A stretch of 64,000 nt of DNA from a virus, in the IMG/VR virus record IMGVR_UViG_3300045922_001133, positions 1,996 to 65,995 of that record. One strand, written 5' to 3'. The notes beneath the pieces were generated by a model that saw only the letters and a program-made list of their open reading frames with translations, did no database searches and was not told the DNA's origin. The position numbers and the translations under genes were made by a program. Positions 25,973 through 55,631 of this stretch are shown here, piece after piece. The number at the start of each line of letters is the position of its first letter. Position 1 is the first letter of the stretch.

Positions 25973-26653
25973 ATGGGAAGCACGGACCTGTACGTCACGC
26001 CGGCAGAAGCCGCTGAACTCCTCGGCGTATCCGTGGAGATGGTGCACGTCTACGACCGCAAGCAGCTCCTCGAGGCGTACTACCCAAACGGGCGAAAGGC
26101 CGGGAAGCGATTCCTCGCCGAGGACGTCTACGCGCTCGTCGAGCTCCGGCAGGAGCACAAAGGGGACTTCCTCCGAAGGCTTCCGCAGATCGCGATGCGC
26201 GCGGTCGTCACGAGCCGGCGTGTCGAGAAGCGCCTCGACGAGCTCATGCAGTTCCTGGGGTTGAACGACGTGGTCCTCCCCCTCGACGCCACTTCCATCG
26301 CACTGCTGCACTTCCAGGTCGAGAAGGCACTGGCACAGCCGCGCGTCGAAGACCAGCAGGAGCTTCTCGACTGGGCGAAGAAGCTCCTCGCGATCAACGA
26401 AGAGTACCTCGACCTCGTGAAGCTGCATCTCGGCGACGAGTACCCCTGGAAGCCGTACCTGGACCTGGCGCGGAAGCTCTCGGAGGCATGCGGGGGACGG
26501 CAGCGCAGCTTCCTCGAGCACGCGCGGGCGAACCTCCGGAACGTGGCCTACTTCTACGAGCGCTCGTGGCGCGGGCCGAAGGAGGCCGAGAAGCTGTTCC
26601 CGGGGGAACGCTACTCCGGCCGACTCCTTCGGCGCGTGCTGACGGACGCCTAG
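25973..26653 (+). CDS. MerR/excisionase-type helix-turn-helix DNA-binding protein
   Basis: YVTPAEAAELLGVSVEMVHVYDRKQLL...GKRFLAEDV; GGGAG RBS; antisense to the late block. Confidence 0.75.
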   Translation: MGSTDLYVTPAEAAELLGVSVEMVHVYDRKQLLEAYYPNGRKAGKRFLAEDVYALVELRQEHKGDFLRRLPQIAMRAVVTSRRVEKRLDELMQFLGLNDVVLPLDATSIALLHFQVEKALAQPRVEDQQELLDWAKKLLAINEEYLDLVKLHLGDEYPWKPYLDLARKLSEACGGRQRSFLEHARANLRNVAYFYERSWRGPKEAEKLFPGERYSGRLLRRVLTDA

Positions 26654-29600
26654 CCCTGATAGAGCGGTCCGGTGTAACCGGAGTACTGCGGGCCGACGTT
26701 CTCGTACTCCCTCTTCGGCGCGATGATGTCCGGACGCGGGCGCACGATCATCGACCCGAGGAAGCAGTAGAGAATCGAGTGGAACGAGTCATCCGGGCGG
26801 TCCGGGCGGTGCTGGTACTGGATCATCCGCAGCGTCTCGTTGTACTCGCTGAAGATGTTCAGCATGTCCTGCGCGTAGGGCTGGTGGAACTCCTCCCAGC
26901 GGGGGAACTCGAACTGCCCGCGCTTAATAGCGGCGAAGATGTCGCTCATCACCTCGGTGCGGTGCACGAGGAAGCGGGCGAGCCGATCGTCGCGGTAGAC
27001 CTTCTTCTTCACGCGAGCCTGGTATTGGAACTTGTGGAAGCGCGCGGGACCGAACTCGCGGACGAGGACGTTGTTGCTCGCGAAGCCGCCGCCGTAGTCG
27101 GCAGCGATGATGCGGCAGTTGAAGGCCCGGATGATGGCGACGATCTTCGAGATCTGGATCTGCGGGTCGACGTCCTCGCCGGTGAATCGGTGAATCCAGA
27201 AGATGCGGAACCGATGCCCCTCGTAGTATCCGAGCGACATCACGGTGTAGCTGTTCTCGCCGGTGTTGCCTTGGTACGAGATGCAGCCGTTGCGCTCCGT
27301 GACGATGTAACCCGTCGGAACAGAGCAGCAGTACACCTTGCCGTTGTATGGCACCCGCTCAACCGAAGAAGACGGCGTGTTGAGCTGGTAGTCCCTGCCC
27401 TCGGACCAGGACACCCGCCACTGCGCTTTGCGGTTCCCGTTCGCCTCCTTGTGGGGACGAAGTACGGCGCGAAGCCCGAGTCGGATGCAGATCTCCTGGA
27501 AGTCTTCGCAGAGCCCCTTCGAGGTGGAATAGAAACTTCCGCCGGTGTTGCCGGGCCGAGGATCGATAGAACCATCACCGCCGACCATCGCACGCCAGAG
27601 AATCCAGAGCTGGCGCTGGCTGAGCCGAAGGAACTCACGCGGGATACGCTTCTCTGCTCCCGTACGCCCTACGTTCTCGGCGTACCAGTGCCAGTACTGC
27701 TTGCCGTAGATGGTCCAGTTGACGTCACCCGTCTTCGGGTTCAGGAACGCCTTGTACGGTATCTGCATCCGATCGAGGCATGCCTGAATCCGTTCGCAGA
27801 CGTGCGCGTTGACCGTTCTCCGTTGAGACATCTTCAGGCACGAGGGCCTGTCACCGTCGAAACAGAGGCCACCTTCGGTCACGAGGTACCCGAGGAGCTC
27901 AAGCCAGTCGTCCATCGAGAACGTGCGTTCGTCCGAACCGGAGTACCCGGGGCTGATCGGGAGGCCGGGCAGGGTAAAGTAAGGTACTTCTTCACCACGC
28001 CATGTGACCGAACCCACGAACTTCACGTTGCCGCCGCGCTTCACGGTCTCGCCGGCCGCTTCCGTGACCCACTTCCCGCTGGGCAGAGGGTTCACCCGCA
28101 TCCGATGGGTGTCGGTCACCATGAGATCAAGACCATCGCGCGTCTTGAAGTGAAGAAGTGGCCTGTCCCAGTCTCGGATGGTCCGGACCTTCGGGGTCAC
28201 GAACGTCATCTCCCGCGTGTCCGGATCCCACTGCGCAACCTTGTCGTCGGCCTTCAGGTCGCGGAAGTACTTGAAGCCAGTCTCGGTGAGGATGCGCGTC
28301 TCTTCGTCATGGCAGCCCCAGTCGATGCCGGCGAAGACTTCCGTCCCGTTGAGCAGCATCTTCCGCGTGCGCTCGACGGCGTCGGGGTGCATCGTGAGCT
28401 GCGGATTGCAGCAGTCCTTGATCTGCCCCATCGTCAGCGGACGAAGGCCCGAGTCGTACGAGATGCCGAGCACCTCGTTGTAGAACTTGTCGCGAGAGTA
28501 GCGGCTGTAGTCGAGGAGGATCTCGTCCCAGGGCCGCCAGGGGACCATGAGCTGCGGGATGCGGTAGCTCTCGAAGATGCCGTCAGCGACCATCTGCGCC
28601 CACTGCGCCTTCTCGTGCATCGGGTTGATGAGCGACCCGCACTTCTCGCAGATGAGACCCTTGCGACCGATGTTCTTCTCCGAAAGCACGTTCCAGTGCA
28701 TCCCGGTCTCGCCGCCGTGCTTGTCGCAGGGGACGACCCACTCGCCCTGCGTCGACATCGGCTTGCCGTCTTTCGACACGCCGGAGCGGTAGTACTCGAT
28801 GGGGTTGTCGAGGCCCTTTGGCGTACCGGCGTAGATGAACCGCCTCATCTGCTCCGGCGCGTGGGACGTGCACTGCTCGATGACGGGGATGTTGTCCGCT
28901 ATGATGTCCTGGAGCTCGTCGAGCGCGAGCAGCCAGGCAGGGATGCCTCGAGTGTTGTGGATGAACATCCCGTCGACGAGGTAGTTCTCCGTCTCGCTCA
29001 CGGTCAGGTCGTAGGTCTGAGCCTCGCCCGCCGGGTCGATGCTTGTGATGCGCGCCCATCCAAGCTCGCTTTCGGCGAGGCTGGTGAGGTAGGCGTCCTC
29101 GAGCTTCCGGGCAATCTCGGCGAGGACGCGGCGACCGATCGACGTCTTCGTGTTGCCAGGACGGAGCTGGATCTTGTGCTTCATCCACGCCGAATGGGTC
29201 GTCAGACCGTGGGCGCGTTTGAGGTAAGCGCGGAGATCGGCATAGGAAAGCGGGATGCGGTCGGCGTCGTCCTTCTTCCTGCTGACCAGGCACGCGGCCT
29301 GGTACACGGACGCAAAGGCTTCCTCCTTGCCGAGGACGGGGATCTGCTCACAGAAGGCCTTCACGGAGGCCGCGGAGCGGATCGACAGGACGTAGGCGCC
29401 CTGGGCTCCCGCCGTAGACGGCTTCTTCTGGCGGCTGACCCAGGAGACAACGCCGAACCGAAGGAGAAGGACCTTCAGGTCGTGCAGAAGTCCGAGCGAG
29501 TTGGATGCATAGCCGATCTCGAACTGCCGTCGTGAGCTCAAGCTCGCCCAGCCATCCGTCGCATAGATCGCCCCGAGCAGGGCAGCTACCTGCGCTTCGT

Positions 29601-30825
29601 TCCCGGTGAAGAAAGCAGAAGGCACGCGCTTGGTCGCGTGGTTCTGGCCAATGAGGCCAAGCTCCCGGAGGCGCTTCTTGTAGCCCTGGATACCTCCAAA
29701 GATTCCCTGCCGCTTGGTCTCGCTTTCGACCCAGTGGGCGCGGTTGCTGTCCTGGAGTTTCCCGAGCTTGGCTCCGAGGGCCTGGGCGCACCGCTGAAAA
29801 TCGGACATGACGACCGGGCAGCCGTTGAAGAAGGCCACCCCGTTGAACGTCGTCAGCGAGCCGTCTCCCAAGAGGTAGCCCACAAGGCGGTACTCCTCGA
29901 TGGGAATCTCGTTACCGCTACCGTGCGCGGAGCGGCGGGGCACAGCGACGTAGTCCCCGACGTGAAGGTCTTTGACCTGTCGCCAGCCGTTCCACGTCAG
30001 GAGAGGCTGGTTGTCCGTACACGTCGTCTCTGCCCCAGCTTCGAGGCGAACGGTGAAGACGGGGCGTCGACCTTGGTAGACGACGTCCTCGAGCTGGGCA
30101 GGGACCGGCTTGAGGGCTTCGGGATCGGCAGACCAAACCCAGCGGCCCACGTAGCTCGCCGGGTCGTCGTAGATCTCCTTCAGGGTCGCGACCGCACCAT
30201 CCGTGAAGTGCACGCGCGTGCTGCCGATCGCGCAACGGTCGGCGTTGAGGAACGCGTAGCGCATCGTGATCTTGGCGCGGTTCACGAACTGCTTCTCGAG
30301 GATGTTCATCGAGAGCGCGTTCGTCGTGTACGCCTTCAAGATCGGACTGGTCTCGATCGGCTCCTTGATACGGTCGCTCGAGAAGGTCTTCGTCTGCGTC
30401 GCTGACGGCGAGACGTATAGCGTCTTGTAGCCGGGGATGAGGCAGGAGTACGTCAGGATGATGTTGCCGAGGAGCGTCGACTTCTCGACCTGGCGCCCGC
30501 AGAAGAGCAGCACGCGCTTCGCCGGCGTGTTGTAGGGCCGCTTCATGTGACGGCGGCCCTCGAACGTGAAGTTCTCGTAGCCCGTGCCGTCCGCCTTCGG
30601 CATGCGGAAGGCGAACTCGGTGAACTGGCTTGGATAGATCGCGGGGATCTTCTCGAGCTTCTTCGCCTTGAACTCGATGTCGAGGAAGTCCTCGAAAGGC
30701 TCGGGCTCGGGCATCCAGGGCATGCCGTCCTGCATGCACTGGAGCTCTTCGTCGGTGAACTCGACGGGGTCGAGATCCTCCTCCCCCGGCGGCTGCCTCT
30801 CGATGTCTCTCTGGACCGCGTACAT
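26650..30825 (-). CDS. terL: terminase large subunit (gpA-like), with two inteins
   Basis: 1391-aa precursor, 614 aa mature; Walker A region CGRQVEKST; RG...LALDE Walker B; Zn ribbon PCDKH...CEKC; nuclease GIDWG and PDDSFHS. Confidence 0.9.
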   Translation of the reverse strand: MYAVQRDIERQPPGEEDLDPVEFTDEELQCMQDGMPWMPEPEPFEDFLDIEFKAKKLEKIPAIYPSQFTEFAFRMPKADGTGYENFTFEGRRHMKRPYNTPAKRVLLFCGRQVEKSTLLGNIILTYSCLIPGYKTLYVSPSATQTKTFSSDRIKEPIETSPILKAYTTNALSMNILEKQFVNRAKITMRYAFLNADRCAIGSTRVHFTDGAVATLKEIYDDPASYVGRWVWSADPEALKPVPAQLEDVVYQGRRPVFTVRLEAGAETTCTDNQPLLTWNGWRQVKDLHVGDYVAVPRRSAHGSGNEIPIEEYRLVGYLLGDGSLTTFNGVAFFNGCPVVMSDFQRCAQALGAKLGKLQDSNRAHWVESETKRQGIFGGIQGYKKRLRELGLIGQNHATKRVPSAFFTGNEAQVAALLGAIYATDGWASLSSRRQFEIGYASNSLGLLHDLKVLLLRFGVVSWVSRQKKPSTAGAQGAYVLSIRSAASVKAFCEQIPVLGKEEAFASVYQAACLVSRKKDDADRIPLSYADLRAYLKRAHGLTTHSAWMKHKIQLRPGNTKTSIGRRVLAEIARKLEDAYLTSLAESELGWARITSIDPAGEAQTYDLTVSETENYLVDGMFIHNTRGIPAWLLALDELQDIIADNIPVIEQCTSHAPEQMRRFIYAGTPKGLDNPIEYYRSGVSKDGKPMSTQGEWVVPCDKHGGETGMHWNVLSEKNIGRKGLICEKCGSLINPMHEKAQWAQMVADGIFESYRIPQLMVPWRPWDEILLDYSRYSRDKFYNEVLGISYDSGLRPLTMGQIKDCCNPQLTMHPDAVERTRKMLLNGTEVFAGIDWGCHDEETRILTETGFKYFRDLKADDKVAQWDPDTREMTFVTPKVRTIRDWDRPLLHFKTRDGLDLMVTDTHRMRVNPLPSGKWVTEAAGETVKRGGNVKFVGSVTWRGEEVPYFTLPGLPISPGYSGSDERTFSMDDWLELLGYLVTEGGLCFDGDRPSCLKMSQRRTVNAHVCERIQACLDRMQIPYKAFLNPKTGDVNWTIYGKQYWHWYAENVGRTGAEKRIPREFLRLSQRQLWILWRAMVGGDGSIDPRPGNTGGSFYSTSKGLCEDFQEICIRLGLRAVLRPHKEANGNRKAQWRVSWSEGRDYQLNTPSSSVERVPYNGKVYCCSVPTGYIVTERNGCISYQGNTGENSYTVMSLGYYEGHRFRIFWIHRFTGEDVDPQIQISKIVAIIRAFNCRIIAADYGGGFASNNVLVREFGPARFHKFQYQARVKKKVYRDDRLARFLVHRTEVMSDIFAAIKRGQFEFPRWEEFHQPYAQDMLNIFSEYNETLRMIQYQHRPDRPDDSFHSILYCFLGSMIVRPRPDIIAPKREYENVGPQYSGYTGPLYQG
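27265..28314 (-). mobile_element. intein 2 in TerL (LAGLIDADG, 350 aa)
   Basis: Starts CHDEETRI after GIDWG, ends ISYQGN, +1 Thr; LLGYLVTEGG and WRAMVGGDGS. Confidence 0.9.
28954..30234 (-). mobile_element. intein 1 in TerL (LAGLIDADG, 427 aa)
   Basis: Starts CAIGSTRV after NADR, ends MFIHN, +1 Thr; LVGYLLGDGS and LGAIYATDGW. Confidence 0.93.
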
Positions 30826-36700: not shown

Positions 36701-39700
36701 TCAGTAGTGGTGCTCCGGGACGTTCTTCAGGTGACCGAAGCCCGGACGCAGGTGATGGGCCCGCGTGAGCCCAAGCTCGGCGCCGTAGGCGATGGCAGGG
36801 ATGGGGTGAGTGCCGTGGATGTTCGACCGGCTTCCGAGGGCGGCTGCCTCCGCAATGGTCGATCGCAGCTTCTGGTGCTGCAGCTTCGCCATCCAGTCCT
36901 CCTGGAGCGAAAGCGGCATCATGTTGATGCCCTTCAGGACGGGCGTGTGCTCGATCGGGCGTCGGCCGGCCTTCACAAGCTCGCTGTTCTGCTTCTGGAC
37001 GACGGACAAGGGCTGGAACTCCCCGCGAAGAACACCGACGGCGTCCCCGGGGTGGACCACCTTGGTGAGGTTCGACATCGCCTTCACGACGGTCTCGATG
37101 TGCCGGCGCTTGATCCCCTCATCCTTGTACAGGTCGTACATCTCCGAGACCAGGTGGTTCTGCACCTTGTCGATACTACCAGTCGCCTTGTAAAGGTCGT
37201 GGGGGTTCACGAACGTCCGGGCCGGGTCGGAGAGCGGTGAGCCCGCGGTGACGTACTGCCCGACCTTGAGCCCAGTCCAATTCGAGCTCCCGTAGGGCTG
37301 ATGAAGCGGGTGGCCGGCGGCGTCCTTGCCGACGAAGTGCTTCTTGCCATTGATGTAGACATTCGCGCCCGTTGACGTCGGTTCGATCTTCTCGATCTTG
37401 CCGCTCGTCATCGCGAGGCTCGCCGCGTTGGGGATCTTCTTCGGCAGCATGGTGAGCTGCTCGAAACGCGCGAAGCTGTTCAGGAGCTTCCCGCCCGACT
37501 GCTCGACGACGCCACCGGTGTGGAAGCTCTTCAGGGTGAGCTGCACCGCGCGCTCGCCGACGGCGTGCGCCGCGTGGATGCCTGCGTTCGTCCCGACATC
37601 GTGGAAGTCCCCGTGCGATCCGACGCCGAGGCACTTCTGGCAGATACCCTTCTCGTGCTCGCACTTCAGCGGGCTCCGGACGAGGAGCTTGGCGTTCTTG
37701 TCGACCGCCTTGATCTGTCCCGTAATGTCCGGAGTGAGCACGGTGCCCGCCTTCACGTGGAGCTTGCCGTGCGTGAAGTCCTGCGCGAGCACCCGGTCGT
37801 GGATGTCCTTCTCGTGGACGCCCATCGCGATCCCGCGCGTGGTACCGCAGTCCTTGCTGCCCACGAGGAGGTCCATCGTGTTGTTCATGAGGAGCTTCGA
37901 CATGTAGCCGGGCTCCTGGACCTCCTGGACCTTGAGCACGGAGCCGCGGCGAGCGCCGTGCATCTGCGTCCAGTACGAGCCGACGTCGAGGCCCTCGGAG
38001 TAGCTCTTCGTGACCGGCATGGGGATGACCCGGTCGGAGGAGTCCTTCAGCAGCATCGGCGCGAGGACCATCTGCTTGTACTGGTCCCACCCAGGCTTCA
38101 CGCCCGCCTTGTACATCGTGAAGAGATTCGTCGGCTTCTTCTCGAGCTTCTTCTCGTGAAGGGCCTTCATCTCCTGGTCGGCCTTCGAGTAGATGGCGAC
38201 GATCCGCCGGTTCTTCTCTGCCTCGGGGAGAGGCGAGCTCCGGATCGCCGCAGCCTCCTTGTCGGCCTTCGAGAGCACTTGGTTTCGGACGGTCTTGTCG
38301 GCGGCGAAGTCCGCGAGCCCGAGGGAGTGCGTCCCGATCGGGACGAAGACGTTCTTCTTCGGGTCGGTGAGGTTCGCGATCGTCGTGTGTGGCAGCGGAA
38401 CGGCGACGGCGCCGAAGGACGCGTCGTTACCGAGGTCCTTCAGCCTGTTCACCGCGCGGTCGAAGTCCGCCTTGTGGTCCTTGCCGAGGCGGGTGAGCAG
38501 CCCCTCGAGGCCCTTCTTGTCGAGCCGGTGGTCGAGGTTGTAGAGGATGTCGTCCTGCATCGCCGGCGGCAACGCGGTCGAGAGAAGCACACGACCCGGC
38601 GTCGTCTTCTTGCCGTTCAGCGAGACGACATCATCGTGCTTGAGCTTGCCCTGGCGAACCGCGTCGAGCACGGCGCCGGGGTTCGAGAAGCTCTTGCCGG
38701 TGTCCTTGCCGGTAAGCGAGAGCTTGTAGATGCCGAGCGCGCTCTCGAGCGTCGGGCTGAAGGCGATCTTGCCGGTGCTCTCTGCGAAGAGGTTCTGCGT
38801 CGGCTTCATCTTGTGCGCCTCGTTCACCGCCTCACGGGAGATGGGAACGAAGACGCTCATCGTGTTGGACAAGACCACCCCGTCAACGGACATGAAGGTC
38901 TCGAAGCCGGGTACGGTCAAGTCGTAACCGTTCTCAACGATGCCAGTCTTTTCGAAGGACACAACACGGTCCCAGCGAACTCCCATGTCACGCGCAAGAC
39001 AAGACCATCGCCAGAAACACTCGTTCTCGCTGGGAAGGGTTGGAATACGGTCGAGAATCTCCAGAGCGGAAGAACGAGACACGTACTCCCGATCCATCGC
39101 GTTTGACAAAACCACATACACGGACTGACCGAGCGAGGTTCCAATGCGATCCCGGAGCTGCTTCGCCACTCCACGCGGCGTCGGGATGATGTCCAACCGC
39201 GCATGAGCCTGTTTCCGGGAAGGACAAGGCCCTTGAATGAAGGAACGGAATGCCTCCGCCTTCTTTACGTGATTGAGGGGCAGCTCCCCGAGGGTGTGAA
39301 AGTCCACGGTCGAGAAGTTTACCGTCCAAACAGGCTGCTTCTTCAGCGTTTTGCCCGCGGTCATCTTCGCCCGAACAGAAAGAGAACGGGCGAGGGACAC
39401 AACTTCATAGGCCAGTCGCGTACTTGTCGTACTGAGGCTGATGAGGTACTGCGGCTTGTCCTTGGCATTGCTGACGCTGATCGACCCATCCGTGTCGATC
39501 AACCCAGCAAGTAGGCCGAGGCGGAAGTCCCGCGGAGCCGTCAGGAAGAAGGGCGGAAGGTGCTTCTGCGCGGCACCGTGGCCGATCAACGGCGCGATGA
39601 ACTTGGCGGCGGCCGTCGAGTTCACCACGTAACGACGACTCTCGACCGATTCCCCGAAGTCCCCACCAATACGCTCGGTAAGAGACACCAAAGGGATCTC

Positions 39701-42700
39701 CTTGAACAGCGCGAGAAGATCTTGCGTAAAGCCAACAGCAACACTGCTCTCGGCGGCAGCGATAGCCACCCCCTTCAAGGTGCCATTGGCACGAACAACC
39801 CAACCATCCCCGACCAGCGTACCGAGAAGCCGACCCGCTCGAGCATCGAGGTCGAAGGAAGCGCGAAGACGATCATCGCCTTCTGGCAGGGGGAGAGCCC
39901 GACGCGACGTCTTTACTTCCCCGTCCGCCATGACGGGAACAAACAAGCCCAAAGACTCACTCGGGCGCCTCCGCACGAAGTTGAGGTCAGAGTCGAGACC
40001 GTAAACCGCTCGCGGGTCGTCGTCGGTAACGATCTGGCGACCCGACGCCAACGTCACGATCTCCACCAAGCGGCCCGTGTGCCTCGACCAATAGCGCACG
40101 TCAGCAAGAGTCAACTTCTTCGTTTGCTCGTCGAAGGCAAGAACCTGAAGGCCCTCAGGCACAGGATGGAAGTCGATGTGACCTTGGGTGACCTTCTCTT
40201 CAGCGTGGGGGAAGTCCGCCAGGTCGCAGAAGTAGAAGTCCCCCTGGAACACGTACCCAACGAGCTCATGAAACCACGCGGCCATCTCCGGCCCCACCTT
40301 TCGAAGAGACCACCACAGGGCATCCGGCCACGGCGCCTCTCCAAGGTGGGTAGCACGGACTTTCCCTTGGGCAAGTCCGCGTTGCATGACAGAATCGCGG
40401 ACAAACAGGACTACTTGACCAAGTTGCTGGTCGCCGTCGAAGTCAGCGTTGAAGCCGCCGCAGACGAGCGGGTGGATCTTGATGGCGTTGCCCTCGACAG
40501 CCTTCGCCTGGAAGGCCTGCACCGAGTACTTGTGCAGCGCCGGGTCTCGCTTCAGGAGCACCGGACGCTCCTCCATCACCTTGTCGAGCGCGCGCCAGAC
40601 GGGTTCGCTCCTCTGCGCGAGCATCTTCTGGGCGTCGAGCGGCGTCGGCGCGGCGCCCATCTCCTGAAGCTTCTTCACGACGAAGGGCCGGAAGAGGTCG
40701 AGCGCGTGCGTCTTCGGCAGACCGACCTCGTCGAGGCCGAGCGCAGGCTCGGGGACGATCGTCGAGCGCATCGTGAGATCCTGGCGCTTCTGGACGAGAG
40801 CGCGCTGGAAGAACCCGCTCTTCGGGCTCGCACCGGAGAGCATGTGGAGCAAGCCCTTGTGCTCCGCGTCCTTGTACGGGATGCCGTAGCCGATGATGGC
40901 CTTCACGCCATCGTAGAGGTTCCGGCGAAGCTCGCTCTTCCGGCTCTCGGTGAAGTTCCGGAGGATGGTCGGGTCCTTGAGCTGGTCGTTGACCTGCGCG
41001 AAGTCCGAGTAGAGCTGGTTGATGTCGGCGTACTTGATGTTGCCGTCTTGCATCAACGACGCGGGGCGCATCACTGGCGGGATGACCGGGATGTTCTTCA
41101 GGATGTACGCCTCGTGCGGCTTCATCCCGAGCTGGTCGAGGGCCCTGAGGTACTTCACCTTCTTCAGGAGCGGGTCGACGTCGGCAGCCTTCGCGTTGTT
41201 GAGCGCGGTCTGCGCCTTCGAGAGCTCTTTCTTCACGTCGATCTGCTTGAGCATGTGCTCGATCGCGTGACCACCCGTGAAGACGCCCTTGCCGAGGTTA
41301 GCGAGCGTGCCGTTCGGATGGATACCCTTCTCACCGGCGATGACAGCGTTGAAGTCCTTCTGCGATAGCCCGGTGAGCACGCGGATGGGCGTCTCGAAGA
41401 GGGGGTTCGGCACCGGCTCGGCGAGCGGGATGCGCGACCACTTCGTGCCGCCGTGACCACCGGTGAGCTTCTCGTCGAAGAGGCCGCCCGGCCGCGGCTT
41501 GAGCTCGCCGGTATTCTTGTCGATCTTCGCCTCGAGCCGCTCGCCCGGCCTCGGCAGGACGCGATCGCCGGTGAGCTCGAGGATGTGCTTGTCGGTGAGC
41601 GGCGAGAGGACGAACTCGTGGCCCTTCTTCTCGATGTTCACGCCGGCGCCGCGAAGCAGGTCCTCGAACTTCTTGAAGGCGAACGTGGGCTTCGGCGTCG
41701 GCAGCGGCTCGCCCGTCTGGATGGCCTTCCACACCTGGTTGTGCTGGCTCGGCCAGCGCTTCGCCTCGTTCGTCTGCGGGTCCGGGCCTTCGCCCTTCCA
41801 CGTCTGCATCTCGCGCAGGTTTGCCTTCGCGCCGTGCGCGAGGAGCGCGTACATGCCGAGCGTGCCGATGCGCTGCCCGGTCTTCGGCTGCAAGTTGATG
41901 TCGTACTTGTCCGTGGAGGGCAGACCCGGGAGGCCCATGCCCGGCGCGACGGCGACCTTCTTGTCAACCTGGTGGACGAGCTTGAGAATGTGCTGCTTGC
42001 CGACAAGGGCCTTGCCGAGCGGCTGCCCCGTGACCGGATCGTAGATATCCTCCTGGTCGGAGAGGCCGTGCTTCTTCAGCTCGGCCTGCACGTGCGCGAC
42101 CATGTCGGCGTCCTTCTGGAACGACGGCGCGACATAGGACTTGCCGAGCTTCTCGGCGATCTTCGACGCGGCAGTCTCGAGGACCTGGCCGACGTTCATG
42201 CGCCCGGGCACACCCGACGGATTGAGCGCGACCTCGATGTGCTTGCCGTCCTTCGTGCGGGGCATCTCCTTGTCCGGGAGGATCATCGTGACGATGCCCT
42301 TGTTGCCGTAGCGGCCCGCGATCTTGTCGCCGACCTGCATCGGCTCGATGGTCTTCACGTGGACCTGGATGCCGTCCTTGCTCCTCGTGATGCCAACGAC
42401 CTCGCCTTCCCCTTCACCGTCCCAGCGGAGGCTCTTGTCGGTGTGCGTGCCGGTGATGCTCTTGCGGATCGCGGCGACGCCCGTGCGGTCCTTGATCTCG
42501 AAGGGCTTCACGGCGAGGATGAGCGGGTCGCCTGGGCGCACGCGCGCGCCGATCTTCGGCAGGCCGTCCTCCCCGATGTGCTCCATCTGGTCCTTCTTGA
42601 AGAGGCCCGGATGATGGATCTCGAACTTCCGACGCCCGAGGATGGTCTTCTCGTCGACAGCGAGCACCGGCTTGTAGAGGTGCACCGAGGCGAGCTTCTT

Positions 42701-44638
42701 CGCCGCGCTCTCCGAGATGACGACGCCGTCCTCGAAGTTGTAGCCCTTGAACGGGATGTACGCGACGCGGAGATTCGTCCCGAGAGCGAGGGTGCCGTTC
42801 TTCGAGAAGTTCGTGTCGGCGATGACCTGCCCCGCCTTCACGCGGTCACCGACCTTCACCGTCGGTGTCGAGTGGAGAACGCTCTTCGCGTCGTTGAGCG
42901 GGTAGTTGTTGTAGATGTGGACCTCGCGGATCTTGCCATCCTTACCCTTGAGCACGATGGCGTCCGACTTCACCGCGTGAACGACACCATCGATGGGTGC
43001 CTGGTGAGACGCCTGCGTCCCGAGCACGCGCTCGAACGAGTTCATGTTCGGCTTGTCGACGCCCGTCGAGACCTGAACGAGCGGCTCCTCGCGATGGAGG
43101 AGCGAGATGGCCTGCTCGATGTGGCGACTCGCCATCGACGCGCGGTTGCCTGACGTGTTCCCGAGGAACGGGATCAGGTTCGACGTCATGTTGAAGAGCT
43201 GGCTCGGGTGGCGCATCACGTAGTGCGCGTCGTCGAACTTCCCGTCCTTCATCTCGTTGTTCGGCCCGACGATCTTCACCGTCGATCCGATCGGCCTCGG
43301 CTTGCCGTTCTCCCACTTCACCTGATCGGGGAGAACGACGTTCTTCGTCACGAAGTCGCCGGGGGAGACGAGCTCGGTCTGCTGCGTCTTCAAGTTGTAG
43401 AGCGGGATCTTCGGCTCGTTGCCGACCTTCTTCACGCCGAGCGGCAGGCGAAGCGTCACGCCGGTCTTCGAGCCCTCGGGCGTGTGGATCGGGTCGAGGA
43501 AGCCGAGGTGCGACGGGTTGACGAACTTCGCTTCGTCGGTGATCGACTTCTCGCTCTTGATGCCGCCGGGACCCATGATGGTCGTCTGGAGCGAGCTCGA
43601 GACCATCTCCACAGGGTTGATCTGCGTGGCGATGCGCGCGGCGCTGTTCTTGTGGAACGTCTGCTTGATCGGGTCGTTGAAGAGGTCGAACTTGACGATG
43701 TCCCGGATGTCGTTCGCCTGGTTGATCTTGCGCGCGGTCTTCGCCGATATGACCTTCGCCGCGCCCCTGAGCTTGTCGAACACGAAGTCGCCAGCGGAGC
43801 GGAGGTCCTTGAACATGAGGCTGTCGCGGTCGTCCTCCGGGTGACCACTCTGGACCTTCATCAACTTCTGCGCTGCGAGAAGTAGCGCTTCACCGTTCAC
43901 GTGGTCGATGGGCTTGCCGAGCGTGAGCGCCGTCGCCTCGGGGCGCATCTTCGACCCAACGAACGTCTCGTAGAGGTGCTTCTCCGCGATCTCCTTCGAG
44001 GGCGGAGCCTCGCGGCGGTCCGTCTTGTAGAACTTCTCCACCGTGCCGGCGACGCCGCGAGCGTTCTTGTTCGCTTCGAACACCTCCTTGCCGAGCGCCT
44101 TCTCGATCGTGTGGTCGTCGAGACCCATCACCTTGAAGATCGGGTACGCCGGAAGCTTCGCCTTGTTGTACTCGATGACGAACTGCTTCGTGCCCGGATC
44201 GAACACCATGTCGAACGGCGTCTTGTTCGCGACGTTGAAACGAGTCTCGAGCTCGCCGTTCTGGCGACGCCGTGTGTAGGCGCCGGGCTTGAGCTGCCAC
44301 TGGTTGTCGATCTGGTACTCCTGCCCATCGAGGATGTAGGAGTAGCGCTGCGTCTGCTTCGGGATCTCCGCGAGGCGGATACGACGGCGGTCGACCGTCT
44401 TCCCGGTGATGTTGTCGACGAGCTCGAGCTCGCCGAAGACGGGCACGGCGTACGACCCACCCTCGACCTTCGCCTTGTGCTGCAACCGCAGGTCGTCGGG
44501 GTGAAGATCATCCTTCACTTCGATCTTCTTCAGGTAGAGCGTCTGGAGCTTTCCCTTGATCGGGAAGTGGCTCTGGATGCCCTCAATCGTCCTGTCGCGG
44601 AAGTGAGCGAACGCCTCCGCCGGATCCAGGTAGGCCAT
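36701..44638 (-). CDS. phage multisubunit RNA polymerase, beta-beta' fusion, with one intein
   Basis: Start at MAYLDP; 2645 aa. Beta motifs: NPSHLGFLDPIHTPEG, GYNFEDG, GDKIAGRYGNKG, NPSGVPGRMNVGQ, GQRIG. Beta' motifs: PVIPPVMRP, LLKRDPALH, NADFDGD, bridge helix RRGSV...PGYMSKLL, trigger loop GERAVQLTLKSFHTGG. Junction near 41620. Confidence 0.95.
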   Translation of the reverse strand: MAYLDPAEAFAHFRDRTIEGIQSHFPIKGKLQTLYLKKIEVKDDLHPDDLRLQHKAKVEGGSYAVPVFGELELVDNITGKTVDRRRIRLAEIPKQTQRYSYILDGQEYQIDNQWQLKPGAYTRRRQNGELETRFNVANKTPFDMVFDPGTKQFVIEYNKAKLPAYPIFKVMGLDDHTIEKALGKEVFEANKNARGVAGTVEKFYKTDRREAPPSKEIAEKHLYETFVGSKMRPEATALTLGKPIDHVNGEALLLAAQKLMKVQSGHPEDDRDSLMFKDLRSAGDFVFDKLRGAAKVISAKTARKINQANDIRDIVKFDLFNDPIKQTFHKNSAARIATQINPVEMVSSSLQTTIMGPGGIKSEKSITDEAKFVNPSHLGFLDPIHTPEGSKTGVTLRLPLGVKKVGNEPKIPLYNLKTQQTELVSPGDFVTKNVVLPDQVKWENGKPRPIGSTVKIVGPNNEMKDGKFDDAHYVMRHPSQLFNMTSNLIPFLGNTSGNRASMASRHIEQAISLLHREEPLVQVSTGVDKPNMNSFERVLGTQASHQAPIDGVVHAVKSDAIVLKGKDGKIREVHIYNNYPLNDAKSVLHSTPTVKVGDRVKAGQVIADTNFSKNGTLALGTNLRVAYIPFKGYNFEDGVVISESAAKKLASVHLYKPVLAVDEKTILGRRKFEIHHPGLFKKDQMEHIGEDGLPKIGARVRPGDPLILAVKPFEIKDRTGVAAIRKSITGTHTDKSLRWDGEGEGEVVGITRSKDGIQVHVKTIEPMQVGDKIAGRYGNKGIVTMILPDKEMPRTKDGKHIEVALNPSGVPGRMNVGQVLETAASKIAEKLGKSYVAPSFQKDADMVAHVQAELKKHGLSDQEDIYDPVTGQPLGKALVGKQHILKLVHQVDKKVAVAPGMGLPGLPSTDKYDINLQPKTGQRIGTLGMYALLAHGAKANLREMQTWKGEGPDPQTNEAKRWPSQHNQVWKAIQTGEPLPTPKPTFAFKKFEDLLRGAGVNIEKKGHEFVLSPLTDKHILELTGDRVLPRPGERLEAKIDKNTGELKPRPGGLFDEKLTGGHGGTKWSRIPLAEPVPNPLFETPIRVLTGLSQKDFNAVIAGEKGIHPNGTLANLGKGVFTGGHAIEHMLKQIDVKKELSKAQTALNNAKAADVDPLLKKVKYLRALDQLGMKPHEAYILKNIPVIPPVMRPASLMQDGNIKYADINQLYSDFAQVNDQLKDPTILRNFTESRKSELRRNLYDGVKAIIGYGIPYKDAEHKGLLHMLSGASPKSGFFQRALVQKRQDLTMRSTIVPEPALGLDEVGLPKTHALDLFRPFVVKKLQEMGAAPTPLDAQKMLAQRSEPVWRALDKVMEERPVLLKRDPALHKYSVQAFQAKAVEGNAIKIHPLVCGGFNADFDGDQQLGQVVLFVRDSVMQRGLAQGKVRATHLGEAPWPDALWWSLRKVGPEMAAWFHELVGYVFQGDFYFCDLADFPHAEEKVTQGHIDFHPVPEGLQVLAFDEQTKKLTLADVRYWSRHTGRLVEIVTLASGRQIVTDDDPRAVYGLDSDLNFVRRRPSESLGLFVPVMADGEVKTSRRALPLPEGDDRLRASFDLDARAGRLLGTLVGDGWVVRANGTLKGVAIAAAESSVAVGFTQDLLALFKEIPLVSLTERIGGDFGESVESRRYVVNSTAAAKFIAPLIGHGAAQKHLPPFFLTAPRDFRLGLLAGLIDTDGSISVSNAKDKPQYLISLSTTSTRLAYEVVSLARSLSVRAKMTAGKTLKKQPVWTVNFSTVDFHTLGELPLNHVKKAEAFRSFIQGPCPSRKQAHARLDIIPTPRGVAKQLRDRIGTSLGQSVYVVLSNAMDREYVSRSSALEILDRIPTLPSENECFWRWSCLARDMGVRWDRVVSFEKTGIVENGYDLTVPGFETFMSVDGVVLSNTMSVFVPISREAVNEAHKMKPTQNLFAESTGKIAFSPTLESALGIYKLSLTGKDTGKSFSNPGAVLDAVRQGKLKHDDVVSLNGKKTTPGRVLLSTALPPAMQDDILYNLDHRLDKKGLEGLLTRLGKDHKADFDRAVNRLKDLGNDASFGAVAVPLPHTTIANLTDPKKNVFVPIGTHSLGLADFAADKTVRNQVLSKADKEAAAIRSSPLPEAEKNRRIVAIYSKADQEMKALHEKKLEKKPTNLFTMYKAGVKPGWDQYKQMVLAPMLLKDSSDRVIPMPVTKSYSEGLDVGSYWTQMHGARRGSVLKVQEVQEPGYMSKLLMNNTMDLLVGSKDCGTTRGIAMGVHEKDIHDRVLAQDFTHGKLHVKAGTVLTPDITGQIKAVDKNAKLLVRSPLKCEHEKGICQKCLGVGSHGDFHDVGTNAGIHAAHAVGERAVQLTLKSFHTGGVVEQSGGKLLNSFARFEQLTMLPKKIPNAASLAMTSGKIEKIEPTSTGANVYINGKKHFVGKDAAGHPLHQPYGSSNWTGLKVGQYVTAGSPLSDPARTFVNPHDLYKATGSIDKVQNHLVSEMYDLYKDEGIKRRHIETVVKAMSNLTKVVHPGDAVGVLRGEFQPLSVVQKQNSELVKAGRRPIEHTPVLKGINMMPLSLQEDWMAKLQHQKLRSTIAEAAALGSRSNIHGTHPIPAIAYGAELGLTRAHHLRPGFGHLKNVPEHHY
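38864..40429 (-). mobile_element. atypical intein (Gln1, LAGLIDADG, 522 aa) in the RNAP catalytic motif
   Basis: Inserted in NADFDGD|TMSVFVP; ends GYDLTV...GVVLSN, +1 Thr; LLGTLVGDGW and LAGLIDTDGS; lower GC3 than the flanks. Confidence 0.88.
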
Positions 44639-44693
44639 GGGGGCAGGGTACTCCACGCCGCGGAAACGCAGCAAGACGCGCACACGCAGAGAG

Positions 44694-44709
44694 ATAAGGA
44701 CTTCGAGGG
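44694..44709 (+). promoter_or_regulatory. candidate phage promoter motif ATAAGGACTTCGAGGG
   Basis: 14/16 identical to 54373-54388; both lie about 30 nt upstream of the first gene of a plus-strand unit. Confidence 0.5.
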
Positions 44710-44739
44710 CGCACACGAAACGCCGCCCTGGGAGTCGTC

Positions 44740-46124: not shown

Positions 46125-47486
46125 CATCGTCCCGATCGAGAAGCTGCTGTCTGTGGCCTTGCTCGTTCCAATGAGCGACCCCAACGACAAGGACTGCAAG
46201 TGGGGGCTCAACGTGATGCTCTGGGGTGACCCGGGCATCGGCAAGAGCGACCGCGTCGAGGCGGCAAGCGCGATGGTCGGCCTGCCGCCGCGCACGGTCT
46301 ACGCCGCGACGACGCAGCCGGAGGACGTCTCCGGCGCCGCGTTCCCGAACACGACCAAGGGCCTCGCGATGTTCGAGGCCGCCATCGAGGGCATCATCGA
46401 AGAGCTCGGCTCCGACGACTTCGAGAGCGAGCTCGAGAGCACGGGGTTCCTCTCGAGCATCGTGAAGAAGCTCGTGAAGCCGCGCGCGACGAAGGTGCTT
46501 CAGCGCATGCTCGCTGCAGCGAAGCGCTACGGCGGCTCGTCGACGGTCCTCGAACCGCTCCTGCCGGGCGTCTCGGACCTCATGGTCGACGGGTGCGGCG
46601 TGCTCTTCCTCGACGAGCTCTCCTGCGCGCGTCCGGCCGTCCAGGGTGCCTACCTCGGCGTCGCGCTCACCCGGCGCGTCGCCGGGCGGCAGCTCCCTGG
46701 CGGAGTCCGCATCATCGCGGCGGGCAACCCGCCGGAGAGTGCGGCGGGCGGCTGGGAGCTCGAACCGCCGATGGCGAACCGCTTCTGCCACTTCGAGGTG
46801 AAGGTCCCCTCCGTCGAGGAGTGGAACGAGTGGCTCATCAACGAGAGCGGCCACCGCCTCGAGCCGATCGAGGAGGGCGAGCTCCGCGTGAAACAGAGGT
46901 GGGCCGACGAGTGGCCGATCGTGAAGGGCCAGTTCGCTGGCTTCATGCGGTCGGGCGGGGCGAAGCTCCACGACATCCCGCCGGAAGGGCACAAGTCCCG
47001 CGGGCGCGCGTGGCCCTCGCCGCGCACGTGGGTCTTCAGCGCGCGGGCAGCGGCGACGTGCCGGTGCCTCGGGCTCGGCGACGACGTGCGTGACGCCTTC
47101 ATCGAAGGATGCGTCGGTCCCGGCCCGGCGATGGCGTTCTCCGCGTGGGCCGCGAACGCGGACCTGCCGACGCCGCAGGACATGATCCGGAACGGGTGGA
47201 CGCCCGACAAGCGACGCCTCGACCGCACGATCGCGGCGTACACCGGGCTCATCTCCTACGTGAAGGGCAGGCCCACGATGGAGAAACGCCTCGAGGTCGC
47301 CCCCGGCGCGTGGAGGTGCATCCGGCAGTCCGCGGACGCCGGCATGCTCGACATCACGCTGCCGATGGCGCAGCAGCTCGTCCGGGAGCGCCTCGACTCG
47401 AAAGCGGGCCCGGAGATCGCGGCCGAATGCAAACCCGTCCTTTCCCGTCTCGCGAAGGCAGGAATGGCCAACTTCCTCCAGGACAT

Positions 47487-47490
<4 letters not shown>
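46117..47490 (+). CDS. MoxR-like AAA+ ATPase
   Basis: Walker A GDPGIGKS, Walker B LFLDE, AAGNP, ANRF, sensor PSPRTW. Confidence 0.88.
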
Positions 47491-48983
<1,493 letters not shown>

Positions 48984-55298: not shown

Positions 55299-55631
55299 AT
55301 GACCCACCGGGTACATCTCCGAAAGGATCTGACCGGGGAAGCCTCCGGACGGCTCACCGTTCTAGGCATCTCCGAGAGAACAAGAAGCGGGACCATATGG
55401 CGTTGCCGATGCTCCTACGGGACTGAGGTGAGGGTCTACTCGTTCAACCTCACCAGGGGCCAACAGGTCTCTTGTGGCTGCTTCGAGAACTTCTTGAGGG
55501 ACATGGGACCTCGCCCAGCCCCCAAGCTCACGATCGAGCGCAAGAACAACAACGGGCCGTACGCTCCCTGGAATTGCCGATGGGCTACCCGGAAAGAGCA
55601 GAGGAGAAACGATGCGCGTCGTCCGGCGTGA
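55299..55631 (+). pseudogene. internally deleted HNH homing endonuclease
   Basis: DLTG..GRLTV..WRCRCSYG..L.RG..SCGC joined directly to FENFLRDMGPRP..TIERKNNNGPYAPWNCRWAT; the usual intervening segment appears absent. Confidence 0.7.

Follow-up and report, generated by a model that had tools for sequence, protein, structure and literature searches.

Inteins of the KlbA type (class 2) have Ala at residue 1 and Cys at +1 and retain a functional His in block B (PMC2807308, PMC7664689), and the inteins of archaeal PolD DP2 ("PolII") are inserted between N962 and C963, immediately behind the third residue of the acidic motif in the catalytic loop (PMC7708050, PMC4996933). Intein-promoted cyclisation of a flanking Asp, which cleaves the N-terminal junction, is documented according to the account of Minteer 2017 given in PMC7897204, where the reacting residue is the Asp at -1 of PolII inteins. 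In the window (the whole stretch of viral DNA analysed here, 64,000 nucleotides), the gene of a fused multisubunit phage RNA polymerase (RNAP) carries an insert in its catalytic loop (Table 1). Judging from its residues and those of its relatives, this insert is likely to be an intein that is active and mobile, belongs to a large lineage specific to this site and splices by a route other than those of classes 1 and 3.

Pfam recognizes the domains RNA_pol_Rpb2_6, Rpb2_3, Rpb1_1, Rpb1_2 and Rpb1_5 in the RNAP reading frame, and about 110 intein-free relatives have lengths of ~2120-2160 aa. The earlier note on this DNA had placed a 522-aa insert beginning QQLGQVVL at 38864-40429, and translation of the minus strand agrees exactly, giving 522 aa that start with QQLGQVVLFV and end with GVVLSN, flanked by HPLVCGGFNADFDGD before and TMSVFVPISREA after, with the splice-junction codons GAC/CAG CAA ... 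TCC AAC/ACG. The other residues it had pointed out are also present, namely Gln (codon CAG) rather than Cys/Ser at residue 1, a block B reading IVTDDDPRAV without His, the block-F Asp, an LSN end whose penultimate residue is Ser instead of His, and Thr at +1. That removal of the insert restores NADFDGD-TMSVFVP is borne out by an empty-site allele (P0075/L116) of 2149 aa, i.e., 2671 minus 522, which reads GACTTCGACGGCGAC/ACGATGAGCGTCTTCGTTCC across the insertion site. Its DNA is collinear with the window gene minus the insert, without gaps and at equal length (6450 = 6450 nt; 87% nucleotide and 90% amino acid identity), which proves both insert ends to the nucleotide. With a GC content of 0.58-0.60, against flanks at 0.62-0.67, and an AT skew of the opposite sign, the insert is foreign in composition to the host gene.

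Table 1. Features of the RNAP gene and its insert (window coordinates; residue numbers are those of the insert).
Feature	Coordinates	Strand	Basis or conservation
Host gene: fused beta-beta' multisubunit RNAP, 2671 aa with insert, 2149 aa without	36701..44716	-	Pfam
N-extein end: NADFDGD catalytic Mg-binding loop	40430..40450	-	Asp-1 = 40430-40432
Intein, 522 aa: Hint splicing domain interrupted by LAGLIDADG homing endonuclease	38864..40429	-	Pfam, AlphaFold/Foldseek, L116
Residue 1 = Gln (CAG), non-nucleophilic	40427..40429	-	
Hint fold beta-strand 1, residues 2-11, QLGQVVLFVR	40397..40426	-	AF2-model secondary structure; stays on gene 1 in split-gene relatives L005, L031
Variable helical insertion between beta1 and beta2, residues 12-57	40259..40396	-	Low confidence, poorly conserved; breakpoint of split forms
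DFPH, residues 72-75, end of beta2	40205..40216	-	F73 98%, P74 100%
W114-S115-R116-H117	40079..40090	-	Ser/Thr115 100%, His117 100%, both clades
Block B, T135-D-D-D-P-R-A-V-Y-G144, in place of canonical T-x-x-H	39998..40027	-	D136/D137/D138/R140 100%
LAGLIDADG homing-endonuclease domain	39020..39862	-	Catalytic Asp208, Asp314 present
LAGLIDADG motif 1, LGTLVGDGWVV	39800-39835	-	
LAGLIDADG motif 2, GLLAGLIDTDGS	39482-39517	-	
Block F, Y502-D503-L-T-V-P-G-F-E510-T-F	38894..38926	-	F:4 = Asp (100%), not Cys; Glu510 (98%) at usual block-F His position
Block G, GVVLSN	38864..38881	-	Penultimate Ser (96%), terminal Asn522 (100%)
Thr+1 (ACG), first residue of C-extein	38861..38863	-	Invariant in intein-bearing alleles

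The AlphaFold model of the insert (pLDDT 89, pTM 0.90, with pLDDT 57 for residues 31-50, two 10-residue blocks within the beta1-beta2 helical insertion) has its best Foldseek matches in TliVMA (7qss, E 2e-19), PI-PkoII, PI-PfuI and PI-SceI, all of which are endonuclease-containing inteins, and Pfam detects LAGLIDADG_3 (E 1.5e-10) together with a weak Intein_splicing match at the C-terminus. With Asp208 and Asp314 kept, the endonuclease looks intact. Block F of the window intein reads GYDLTVPGFETF, and the register of block B is uncertain by one residue, so that B:10 is either Asp138 or Pro139, neither of them His. The W114-H117 segment may be a helper of C-terminal cyclisation or an alternative internal nucleophile or base; PI-PkoII also has a His at the column aligned with His117. 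Five other inteins in the same window, an internal control, are canonical, with Cys1 and a terminal Asn before Cys or Thr.

Profile searches recovered 411 relatives, 138 of them at E<=1e-30 (50%-cluster level), and the same element occupies the same RNAP site in at least 138 clusters (50% identity). As for the two features on which the earlier note had proposed to compare homologs, the DDD-x-R block B is conserved but Gln1 is not: among 116 members residue 1 is Q50, E16, A14, D12, L7, Y3, G3, C3, F3, S1, H1, M1, K1 and N1, with Cys or Ser in only 4/116, and the three Cys1/Ser1 members in a tree of 63 inserts are nested deep rather than basal. Residue 1 drifts freely, which speaks for its being unused in the reaction. 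D136, D137, D138, R140, H117, D503, N522 and T+1 are instead 100% conserved among 54 curated members at 35-55% overall identity; a near-invariant [T/S]DDD[P/E]R block B without His, the F:4 Asp and the SN end run through the family, and Asn522, Thr+1 and the DDD-x-R block B hold throughout the curated set of 54 and the 150 top-ranking representative clusters. In sequence comparison this pattern shows that purifying selection acts strongly on a new set of residues ([T/S]DDD[P/E]R, S115/H117, D503, E510, S521, N522 and T+1). Considering that the starting residues of every known intein class are missing in a conserved family, splicing probably proceeds by chemistry not yet described in inteins.

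Intein and host identities show next to no correlation (Spearman 0.18): the inteins nearest in sequence (47%) lie in RNAPs that are 33-40% identical, and RNAPs 60-90% identical have no insert, a distribution from which horizontal spread of the element is apparent. In the relatives L005 and L022/L031, and in about 13-21 of 150 representatives, the intein is split between genes, only the first 21-24 residues being on gene 1 and the remainder on gene 2; these split relatives begin with Phe or Leu, and their C-fragment still contains the LAGLIDADG domain.

A sister clade at the same RNAP site (P0062-P0069, P0118 and P0125; support 100/100) shares with the window lineage the insertion point, the DFP[HR] and [WF]SxH motifs and the endonuclease, but has Cys/Ser/Thr1, an S-x-D-H block B, Tyr/Trp in place of Glu510 and a C-terminal Asp in place of Asn. 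Replacement of S/T-x-x-H by the acidic cluster and loss of residue-1 nucleophiles fall on one and the same branch. Since the sister clade keeps Cys/Ser/Thr1 and the block-B His, the change took place a single time, at the root of a large clade, and the C-terminal Asp of the sister clade suggests that the scaffold already supported Asp cyclisation.

On the host side, D-5, D-3, G-2 and D-1 do not vary among the aligned hosts (63/63), and Asp-1 precedes the intein in every family member examined. Thr stands at +1 in 124/124 intein-bearing representatives, as compared with T41/A28/S3 in intein-free DYDGD-type alleles and T99/A7/V3/S2/Q1 in intein-free alleles of the window's clade (Fisher p = 1e-14 and 2e-4, both optimistic as the sequences are phylogenetically related); the intein-free alleles of phages Arash and D69 have Ala. 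This argues that Thr+1 may be imposed by the intein as its +1 nucleophile, i.e., for ligation rather than mere cleavage, although a target preference of the endonuclease could partly account for the invariance. Among ~180 intein-free alleles none is split at DFDGD/T, which suggests that chain continuity across this site matters.

The best overall explanation, to which we give a probability of roughly 0.4 from sequence comparison, is an active intein with a canonical second half and a new, Asp-1-assisted first step. With neither residue 1 nor block F of the intein supplying a nucleophile, the reaction would start by a substrate-assisted step in which the side chain of the extein Asp-1 cyclises onto its own backbone carbonyl, breaking the Asp-1/Gln1 bond to give a succinic anhydride; this cyclisation may be promoted by Arg140 and the acidic DDD cluster, which take the place of T-x-x-H. 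Thr+1 would then open the anhydride at the alpha carbonyl and carry the N-extein as an ester, Asn522 would cyclise to release the intein, probably with the help of His117, as neither of the usual His residues is there, after which an O-to-N shift would restore NADFDGD-TMSVFVP, giving a ligated product with the junction peptide ...FNADFDGDTMSVFVPISR. Asp-1 cyclisation as the specific first step is proposed tentatively, at somewhat less than even odds. The constant Asp before the intein, the documented cyclisation of a flanking Asp, the Asp end of the sister clade and the single-branch switch to an acidic block B together with the loss of residue-1 nucleophiles speak for it, but the polymerase itself dictates Asp-1, so that its invariance is inseparable from site specificity, and the cyclisation has been described as off-pathway cleavage only, never on-pathway. 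Moreover, the anhydride could be hydrolysed, resulting in cleavage without ligation, or opened at the beta carbonyl, leaving isoAsp at a Mg-binding residue.

The F:4 Asp and Thr+1 would suit equally well a class-2-like route, in which the Asp-1 carbonyl, its peptide bond still intact, is attacked directly by Thr+1, so that a single step yields the block-G branched ester, to be followed by cyclisation of Asn522 and the O-to-N shift. Here DDD-P-R and Asp503 would provide general base and oxyanion support, and Asp-1 would have no chemical role. A non-nucleophilic residue 1 without the class-3 triplet was the original operational definition of class 2 (PMC7664689), direct attack by +1 is established on-pathway for KlbA inteins (PMC2807308), and the constancy of Thr+1 and Asn522 is in line with such a route. 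However, characterized class 2 inteins combine Cys+1 with a block-B His, whereas here a weak hydroxyl nucleophile stands at +1 and the His is gone, and replacement of T-x-x-H by an invariant acidic cluster is left unexplained. We also know of no class 2 intein with Thr+1, which counts against this route, and we regard it as possible but rather doubtful.

Self-excision without ligation appears improbable. Both junctions would be cleaved, the N-terminal one by hydrolysis or by Asp-1 cyclisation followed by water and the C-terminal one by Asn cyclisation, leaving a polymerase of two non-covalently associated chains. The conserved Asn522 is compatible with C-terminal cleavage, intein-promoted Asp-1 cleavage is already known as a cleavage reaction (as related in PMC7897204), split-gene relatives indicate that the two halves can be made separately, and phage multisubunit RNAPs are often split elsewhere, e.g., ~88 aa after the loop. 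Nevertheless, a +1 nucleophile is superfluous for C-terminal cleavage, yet +1 is always Thr in intein-bearing representatives where Ala is common without the intein; none of the ~180 intein-free alleles is split at this point; and, from established RNAP structure, a free alpha-carboxylate beside the third Mg-binding Asp in the barrel core is unlikely to be harmless.

Less probable still is a class-3-like route, in which Ser/Thr115, activated by His117 and an Asp, would attack the N-terminal junction and hand the N-extein to Thr+1. An internal residue replacing residue 1 has a precedent in class 3, and the two fully conserved residues lie two positions apart on one beta-strand of the model, so that their side chains would face the same way; but the insert lacks the defining triplet (Trp B:12, Cys F:4, Thr G:5), and S115/H117 are equally conserved in the sister clade with its normal Cys/Ser/Thr1 and block-B His, which implies that they were there before the change and did not vary along with it. 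Slightly less credible still is a non-splicing relic or retained domain, i.e., a dead intein that the polymerase tolerates, that depends on a factor acting in trans, or that knocks out a polymerase gene the virus can do without. Like decayed inteins, the insert has neither Cys1 nor the His residues of block B, block F and the penultimate position, and the contig is only ~36% complete, so that a second polymerase is possible; on the other side stand the constancy of junction and block residues across at least 138 diverged clusters, an intact endonuclease with horizontal transfer still going on, an uninterrupted reading frame, insertion inside the buried catalytic loop of a double-psi barrel, and a new invariant motif not expected from decay. 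The earlier note's alternative of a dead copy among homologs that normally have Cys1 and the block-B His likewise does not hold for the 54 curated members and the top 150 clusters, although the sister clade does have Cys/Ser/Thr1 and the block-B His. A sequencing or assembly error at the residue-1 codon, also raised there, is ruled out by the family-wide pattern, the nucleophile being missing in > 100 independent metagenomic relatives (assemblies from JGI, ENA and Logan) and CAG lying three base changes from a Cys codon and at least two from a Ser codon.

If the preferred Asp-1-assisted reading is true, an intein in the RNAP catalytic loop would use a first splicing step new to the described classes. 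The split relatives L005 and L022/L031 are likened to atypically split inteins with a short N-fragment, although the known ones start, to our knowledge, with Cys or Ser and have no endonuclease. The PolII inteins offer a homologous insertion point in a two-barrel polymerase, but they are class 1 with Cys at the splice junction, their Asp-1 reaction is an off-pathway side reaction, and no sequence relationship between them and the window lineage was detected. Class 1 LAGLIDADG inteins (TliVMA, PI-PkoII, PI-PfuI and PI-SceI) resemble the window intein in fold and in a Hint domain split by the endonuclease (Foldseek E 2e-19 to 1e-9), in the F:4 Asp, terminal Asn and Thr/Ser/Cys-type +1, and in a site within a catalytic motif of an essential enzyme; the window intein differs in lacking Cys/Ser/Thr1, the block-B and block-F His and the penultimate His, in its [T/S]DDD[P/E]R block B and in an extra ~45-residue helical insertion between beta1 and beta2. 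With class 3 (mycobacteriophage Bethlehem DnaB and MchDnaB1) it shares the phage association, a variable non-nucleophilic residue 1, co-variation of the residue-1 loss with changes elsewhere in the active site, and Thr/Ser at +1, but it lacks Trp(B:12)-Cys(F:4)-Thr(G:5), having Arg140 or Ala141, Asp503 and Leu520 at the equivalent positions, and the block-B His, which class 3 keeps, is gone. With the Methanocaldococcus jannaschii KlbA type it has in common the non-nucleophilic residue 1, the absent class-3 triplet, the terminal Asn, the F:4 Asp and a +1 residue that probably takes up the N-extein as the first nucleophile; unlike there, residue 1 varies, Thr is constant at +1 and an acidic cluster replaces the His. 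By the sequence criteria of PMC2807308 and PMC7664689, the window intein fails the definitions of classes 1 and 3 and differs from characterized class 2, in agreement with the earlier note, which had found that it fits none of the three.

The polymerase gene of the window encodes a protein of 2671 aa carrying Pfam Rpb2 and Rpb1 domains on one chain, and is therefore a fused beta-beta' multisubunit RNA polymerase (RNAP); its source is a 66-kb IMG/VR viral contig with an estimated completeness of 36%. The earlier note had placed a 522-aa insert with Gln at its first position at NADFDGD/T in this enzyme (slashes mark junctions), which was borne out by the translation, the codons and an empty-site allele. 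The insert region translates to exactly 522 residues, starting with QQLGQVVLFV and ending with GVVLSN (numbered 1-522 hereafter, Asp-1 and Thr+1 being the last N-extein and first C-extein residues). It is preceded by HPLVCGGFNADFDGD and followed by TMSVFVPISREA, and the junction codons are GAC/CAG CAA on the N side and TCC AAC/ACG on the C side, residue 1 being Gln (CAG). Approximately 110 RNAP relatives lack the insert, the site being NADFDGD/TMSVFVP. The nearest of them (P0075, encoded on contig L116) has 2149 aa, that is, 2671 minus 522, and its gene aligns with the window gene minus 1566 nt with zero gaps (87% nucleotide and 90% protein identity), the empty site reading GACTTCGACGGCGAC followed by ACGATGAGCGTCTTCGTTCC in both. 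The insert also differs in composition from the polymerase gene (window 38700-40500), both in GC content (0.58-0.60 versus 0.62-0.67) and in the sign of its AT skew (+0.08 to +0.21 versus -0.15 to -0.28). Foreign DNA has been inserted here precisely. An intein start further on, at Cys67 (FYFCDLADF), which would leave 66 extra residues before it, is ruled out by the L116 boundary at Gln1, and this column is variably Cys, Val, Ile, Thr or Ser across the family.

The insert contains a LAGLIDADG endonuclease core (Pfam LAGLIDADG_3, E 1.5e-10, and Hom_end), and its blocks F and G resemble those of DnaB inteins. The best PDB matches of an AlphaFold (AF2) model built from a 63-sequence alignment (pLDDT 89, pTM 0.90) were TliVMA, PI-PkoII, PI-PfuI and PI-SceI (E 2e-19 to 1e-9), all of them endonuclease-containing inteins. 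The in-frame position at a conserved host site, the predicted Hint fold with adjacent termini, and the C-terminal Asn followed by Thr+1 (Asn522 in 54/54 curated members; Thr+1 in 54/54 and in 124/124 representatives) are those of an intein in the broad sense.

Homologous inserts at the identical site were detected in 68 RNAPs by a word-based search, and an exhaustive search with a profile of the N-terminal Hint region yielded 411 relatives; at the level of 50%-identity representatives, 138 had E<=1e-30. Family spectra were drawn from the best 150 representatives of the profile search. In these 150, the catalytic loop directly precedes the element (D.DGD, or DFNGD in 10), so that Asp is always found at -1. 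The DFNGD loop was seen in hosts P0270, P0285, P0287, P0292, P0301, P0314, P0320 and P0336, and NFDGD in P0232, Asn thereby taking the place of one of the three Mg-binding loop Asp residues. We could not find the window Hint type at any site other than the RNAP catalytic loop, either among the best 150 or in a scan of viral contigs with back-translated DDDPRAVYG, all 28 loci of which lie at this RNAP site.

The 54 curated members share 32-55% identity with the window copy; D136, D137, D138, R140, H117, D503, N522 and T+1 are kept in 100% of them, and S/T115, E510 and S521 in at least 96%. Within the best 150, block B reads [T/S]DDD[P/E]R in nearly all, and the C-junction is SN/T in 123 of 124 real junctions (HN/T in the remaining one). 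The features previously pointed out in the window copy, namely a block B without His, Asp at F:4 (a block F position), the LSN end and Thr+1, are thus all present and invariant or near-invariant across the family. Residue 1 is much more variable in the same set (Q50 E16 A14 D12 L7 Y3 G3 C3 F3 S1 H1 M1 K1 N1). Of the two motifs whose conservation in homologues had been in question, the acidic block B holds, whereas Gln1 does not (50/116). Since a residue 1 that is not a nucleophile is common across the family (Cys or Ser in only 4/116), an assembly error at this codon is excluded, and so is a dead allele among Cys1/His-B homologues, because the main clade (54 rows) lacks the block-B His and its junction residues are invariant. 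Within the reach of sequence evidence, the earlier interpretation of the insert is supported.

A maximum-likelihood tree resolved two clades with 100/100 support. The main clade (54 rows) has a terminal Asn and no His in block B, whereas the sister clade at the same site (9 rows) has Cys, Ser or Thr at residue 1, S-x-D-H in block B, Tyr or Trp for Glu510 and a C-terminal Asp, the C-junctions of P0062-P0069, P0118 and P0125 being VQD/T and VWD/S. A natural 'before' state of the altered window element is provided by this sister clade. In the main clade, Cys1 or Ser1 occurs in three members, which are deeply nested in the tree and non-basal, implying that residue 1 is unconstrained. In addition, two RNAPs (P0104 and P0188) carry a third, unrelated and fully canonical intein of about 360 aa at the identical DFDGD/T position, which starts with SIDLDTPILL (Ser1) and has SEDHS in block B and VHN/T at the C-junction, indicating that the RNAP site is an intein hot spot.

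The window copy retains both catalytic endonuclease Asp residues (Asp208, kept in 40/54 of the family, and Asp314, in 51/54), and each of its two predicted LAGLIDADG helices ends in such an acidic residue. Intein identity and N-extein identity are nearly uncorrelated (Spearman 0.18): the nearest inteins to that of the window (47% identity) occupy RNAPs that are just 33-40% identical to the window RNAP, whereas RNAPs 60-90% identical to it have an empty site. Such a sporadic, homing-like distribution suggests that the lineage is still mobile. Repeated invasion of the catalytic loop, together with persistence in hundreds of lineages, implies that the element must be removed efficiently.

Several relatives carry the element in split form. 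In loci L005 and L022/L031, gene 1 ends with NADFDGD plus 24 or 21 residues, corresponding to the first beta-strand of the intein, and gene 2 follows 56-86 nt further on, its initial Met lying just before the ...L.D.PH strand, and encodes the remaining Hint/LAGLIDADG element with TDDDPRAVYG and VLSN/T, followed by a C-extein of about 90 aa. The breakpoint lies inside a variable helical insertion that is poorly predicted in the AF2 model. The gene-2 form was found in 13-21 of the best 150 representatives, and residue 1 of the split versions is Phe or Leu, again not a nucleophile. An intron or a frameshift is ruled out by the shortness of the gaps (about 56-86 nt) and by the Met with which each downstream ORF starts; the recurrence of the arrangement in many independent clusters also argues against both. 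Host C-exteins fall into length classes of about 85-95, 640-690 and 1000-1750 aa, and in many host phages beta' is broken about 88 residues past the catalytic loop, the window enzyme being a single chain.

Removal could consist of cutting alone, as Asn cyclisation cuts the C-junction without the need for a +1 nucleophile. However, all 124 intein-bearing representatives have Thr+1, while intein-free alleles vary at this position, both in the DYDGD type (Thr 41, Ala 28, Ser 3) and in the clade of the window (Thr 99, Ala 7, Val 3, Ser 2, Gln 1); the cultured phages Arash and D69 have Ala. The difference is significant by Fisher's test (p = 1e-14 for the DYDGD type and 2e-4 for the window clade), these values being optimistic because the sequences are related, and a target preference of the endonuclease could contribute to the invariance of Thr+1. 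Moreover, in about 180 intein-free alleles we could not detect a split between DFDGD and the next residue, so chain continuity across the loop appears to matter; many of these alleles are split about 88 residues beyond DFDGD. These observations provide evidence that the element is probably removed by splicing and not by cutting alone.

Five further inteins are present in the window, making six in 64 kb together with the RNAP element. The other five have Cys at the start and an Asn end before Cys or Thr. The first terminase intein has Cys1, IHN/T and T-D-N-Q in block B (Gln for His), and the second is canonical (TDTH, QGN/T). Those in the 1299-aa ORF run CFPAGT...VHN/C and CFPPGT...VHN/C, the PHROGs matches of their host protein being restricted to inteins and to families of unknown function, and the helicase intein reads A/CVSGDTVL...LTRDHQVL...GIIVHN/C. 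The RNAP element appears to be the sole aberrant intein among the six. The free-standing HNH gene adds to the evidence that this genome is heavily loaded with selfish nucleases. A 13.6-Mb contig of Pendulispora rubella, a myxobacterium, encodes an intein-free homologue (P0159; C-extein identity 56%); this may reflect an integrated relative, and the phages of this group may have a high-GC host lineage.

Coordinates of the RNAP gene, its insert, split relatives and other mobile elements
Feature	Sequence	Coordinates (nt)	Strand	Remarks
Fused RNAP gene	window	36701..44716	-	2671 aa
RNAP insert	window	38864-40429	-	522 residues
Two inteins in large terminase subunit	window	26650-30825	-	
Two canonical LAGLIDADG inteins	window	20164-24063	-	in 1299-aa ORF
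Canonical mini-intein with HNH nuclease	window	55612-57885	+	in SNF2/ResIII-type helicase
Free-standing HNH endonuclease gene	window	47109-48983	+	624 aa; PHROG 1314, E 7e-56
Split intein locus	L005	3894-6136	+ (oriented)	
Split intein locus	L031	2653-4928	reverse complement	
Further split forms	P0195, P0198, P0200, P0224, P0249, P0255, P0269, P0291, P0302, P0311, P0326, P0337			

With regard to mechanism, the second half of the reaction would most simply be canonical, with an ester on Thr+1, cyclisation of Asn522 and an O-to-N shift. His117 might assist the C-terminal cyclisation, since it is invariant in both clades and both lack the penultimate and block-F His; this column is also His in PI-PkoII, which, with a DnaX mini-intein, is all that sequence-profile searches of the PDB reach (E about 1). 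For the first step, we favour cyclisation of the side chain of the extein Asp-1 onto its own backbone carbonyl, which would give an anhydride. One reason for this preference is that Asp-Xaa bonds are normally cleaved in this way, through intramolecular closure of a five-membered ring; others are that a C-terminal Asp is already in use in the sister clade and that loss of the residue-1 nucleophiles coincides with the change of T-x-x-H into an acidic cluster plus Arg. It is also favoured because intein-promoted cyclisation of an Asp flanking an intein has been reported (Minteer 2017, in the summary given by PMC7897204), and because the archaeal PolD intein is located at the point homologous to this site in the two-barrel catalytic loop (PMC7708050, PMC4996933). 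In the main rival explanation, Thr+1 attacks the amide directly, as in class 2; as an acyl donor to the Thr hydroxyl, the anhydride would far surpass the peptide bond. A relay of Ser115 and His117 starting the reaction is a weaker rival, because neither residue co-varies with the change in block B and residue 1. The complete scheme, in which the host Asp-1 is the initiating nucleophile, the DDD-P-R block B influences its cyclisation, the anhydride is trapped by Thr+1 and the process ends with Asn cyclisation, would constitute a fourth mechanistic class of inteins; we regard this as tentative, with a probability of about 0.3.

If this scheme is true, splicing here would be cysteine-free, histidine-poor and reliant on the very Asp that makes the polymerase active (the third Mg-binding Asp). 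A large, conserved and still mobile lineage that lies in a polymerase catalytic loop without the known requirements points to a further route by which the Hint fold may break and re-make peptide bonds, and a natural test series is provided by its contiguous and split forms together with the sister clade, which has canonical residues. A cysteine-free, redox-insensitive intein whose first step needs only Asp-1 would serve protein ligation and labelling, as would the natural split version with its N-fragment of 21-24 residues. Such elements will be missed, or called degenerate, by gene callers and intein finders that rely on Cys1 and H-N.

To our knowledge, three intein mechanisms are known, and each requires an intein Cys, Ser or Thr or a Cys+1, plus a block-B His. 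We could not find a description of this lineage in the literature searched, most subscription journals being outside it, and an earlier description is possible. Class 1 needs Cys, Ser or Thr at residue 1 (PMC2807308, PMC7664689), whereas the RNAP intein has Gln1 (the 4/116 Cys/Ser members of its family being non-basal) and TDDDPR in place of the block-B T-x-x-H. Block B can be aligned in two registers one residue apart, as MAFFT pairs D136 and P139 with the Ser and His of the sister clade and the alternative pairs T135 and D138 with the canonical T-D-N-H-P of the window's own inteins, so that B:10 is Asp138 or Pro139 and in neither register His. Class 3 is defined by Trp B:12, Cys F:4 and Thr G:5 (PMC2807308), whereas the RNAP intein has Arg140 or Ala141, Asp503 (100% conserved) and Leu520 (98%) at these positions. 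Characterised class 2 inteins (KlbA type) carry Cys+1 and require the block-B His (PMC2807308, PMC7664689), whereas the RNAP lineage has Thr+1 throughout and lacks this His. The claim that the element fits none of class 1, KlbA-type class 2 and class 3 thus holds; class 2 in the broad sense would include the lineage, as residue 1 is not a nucleophile and the WCT triplet is absent. The RNAP element is an intein by kind, but a conserved variant to which no class definition applies in full.
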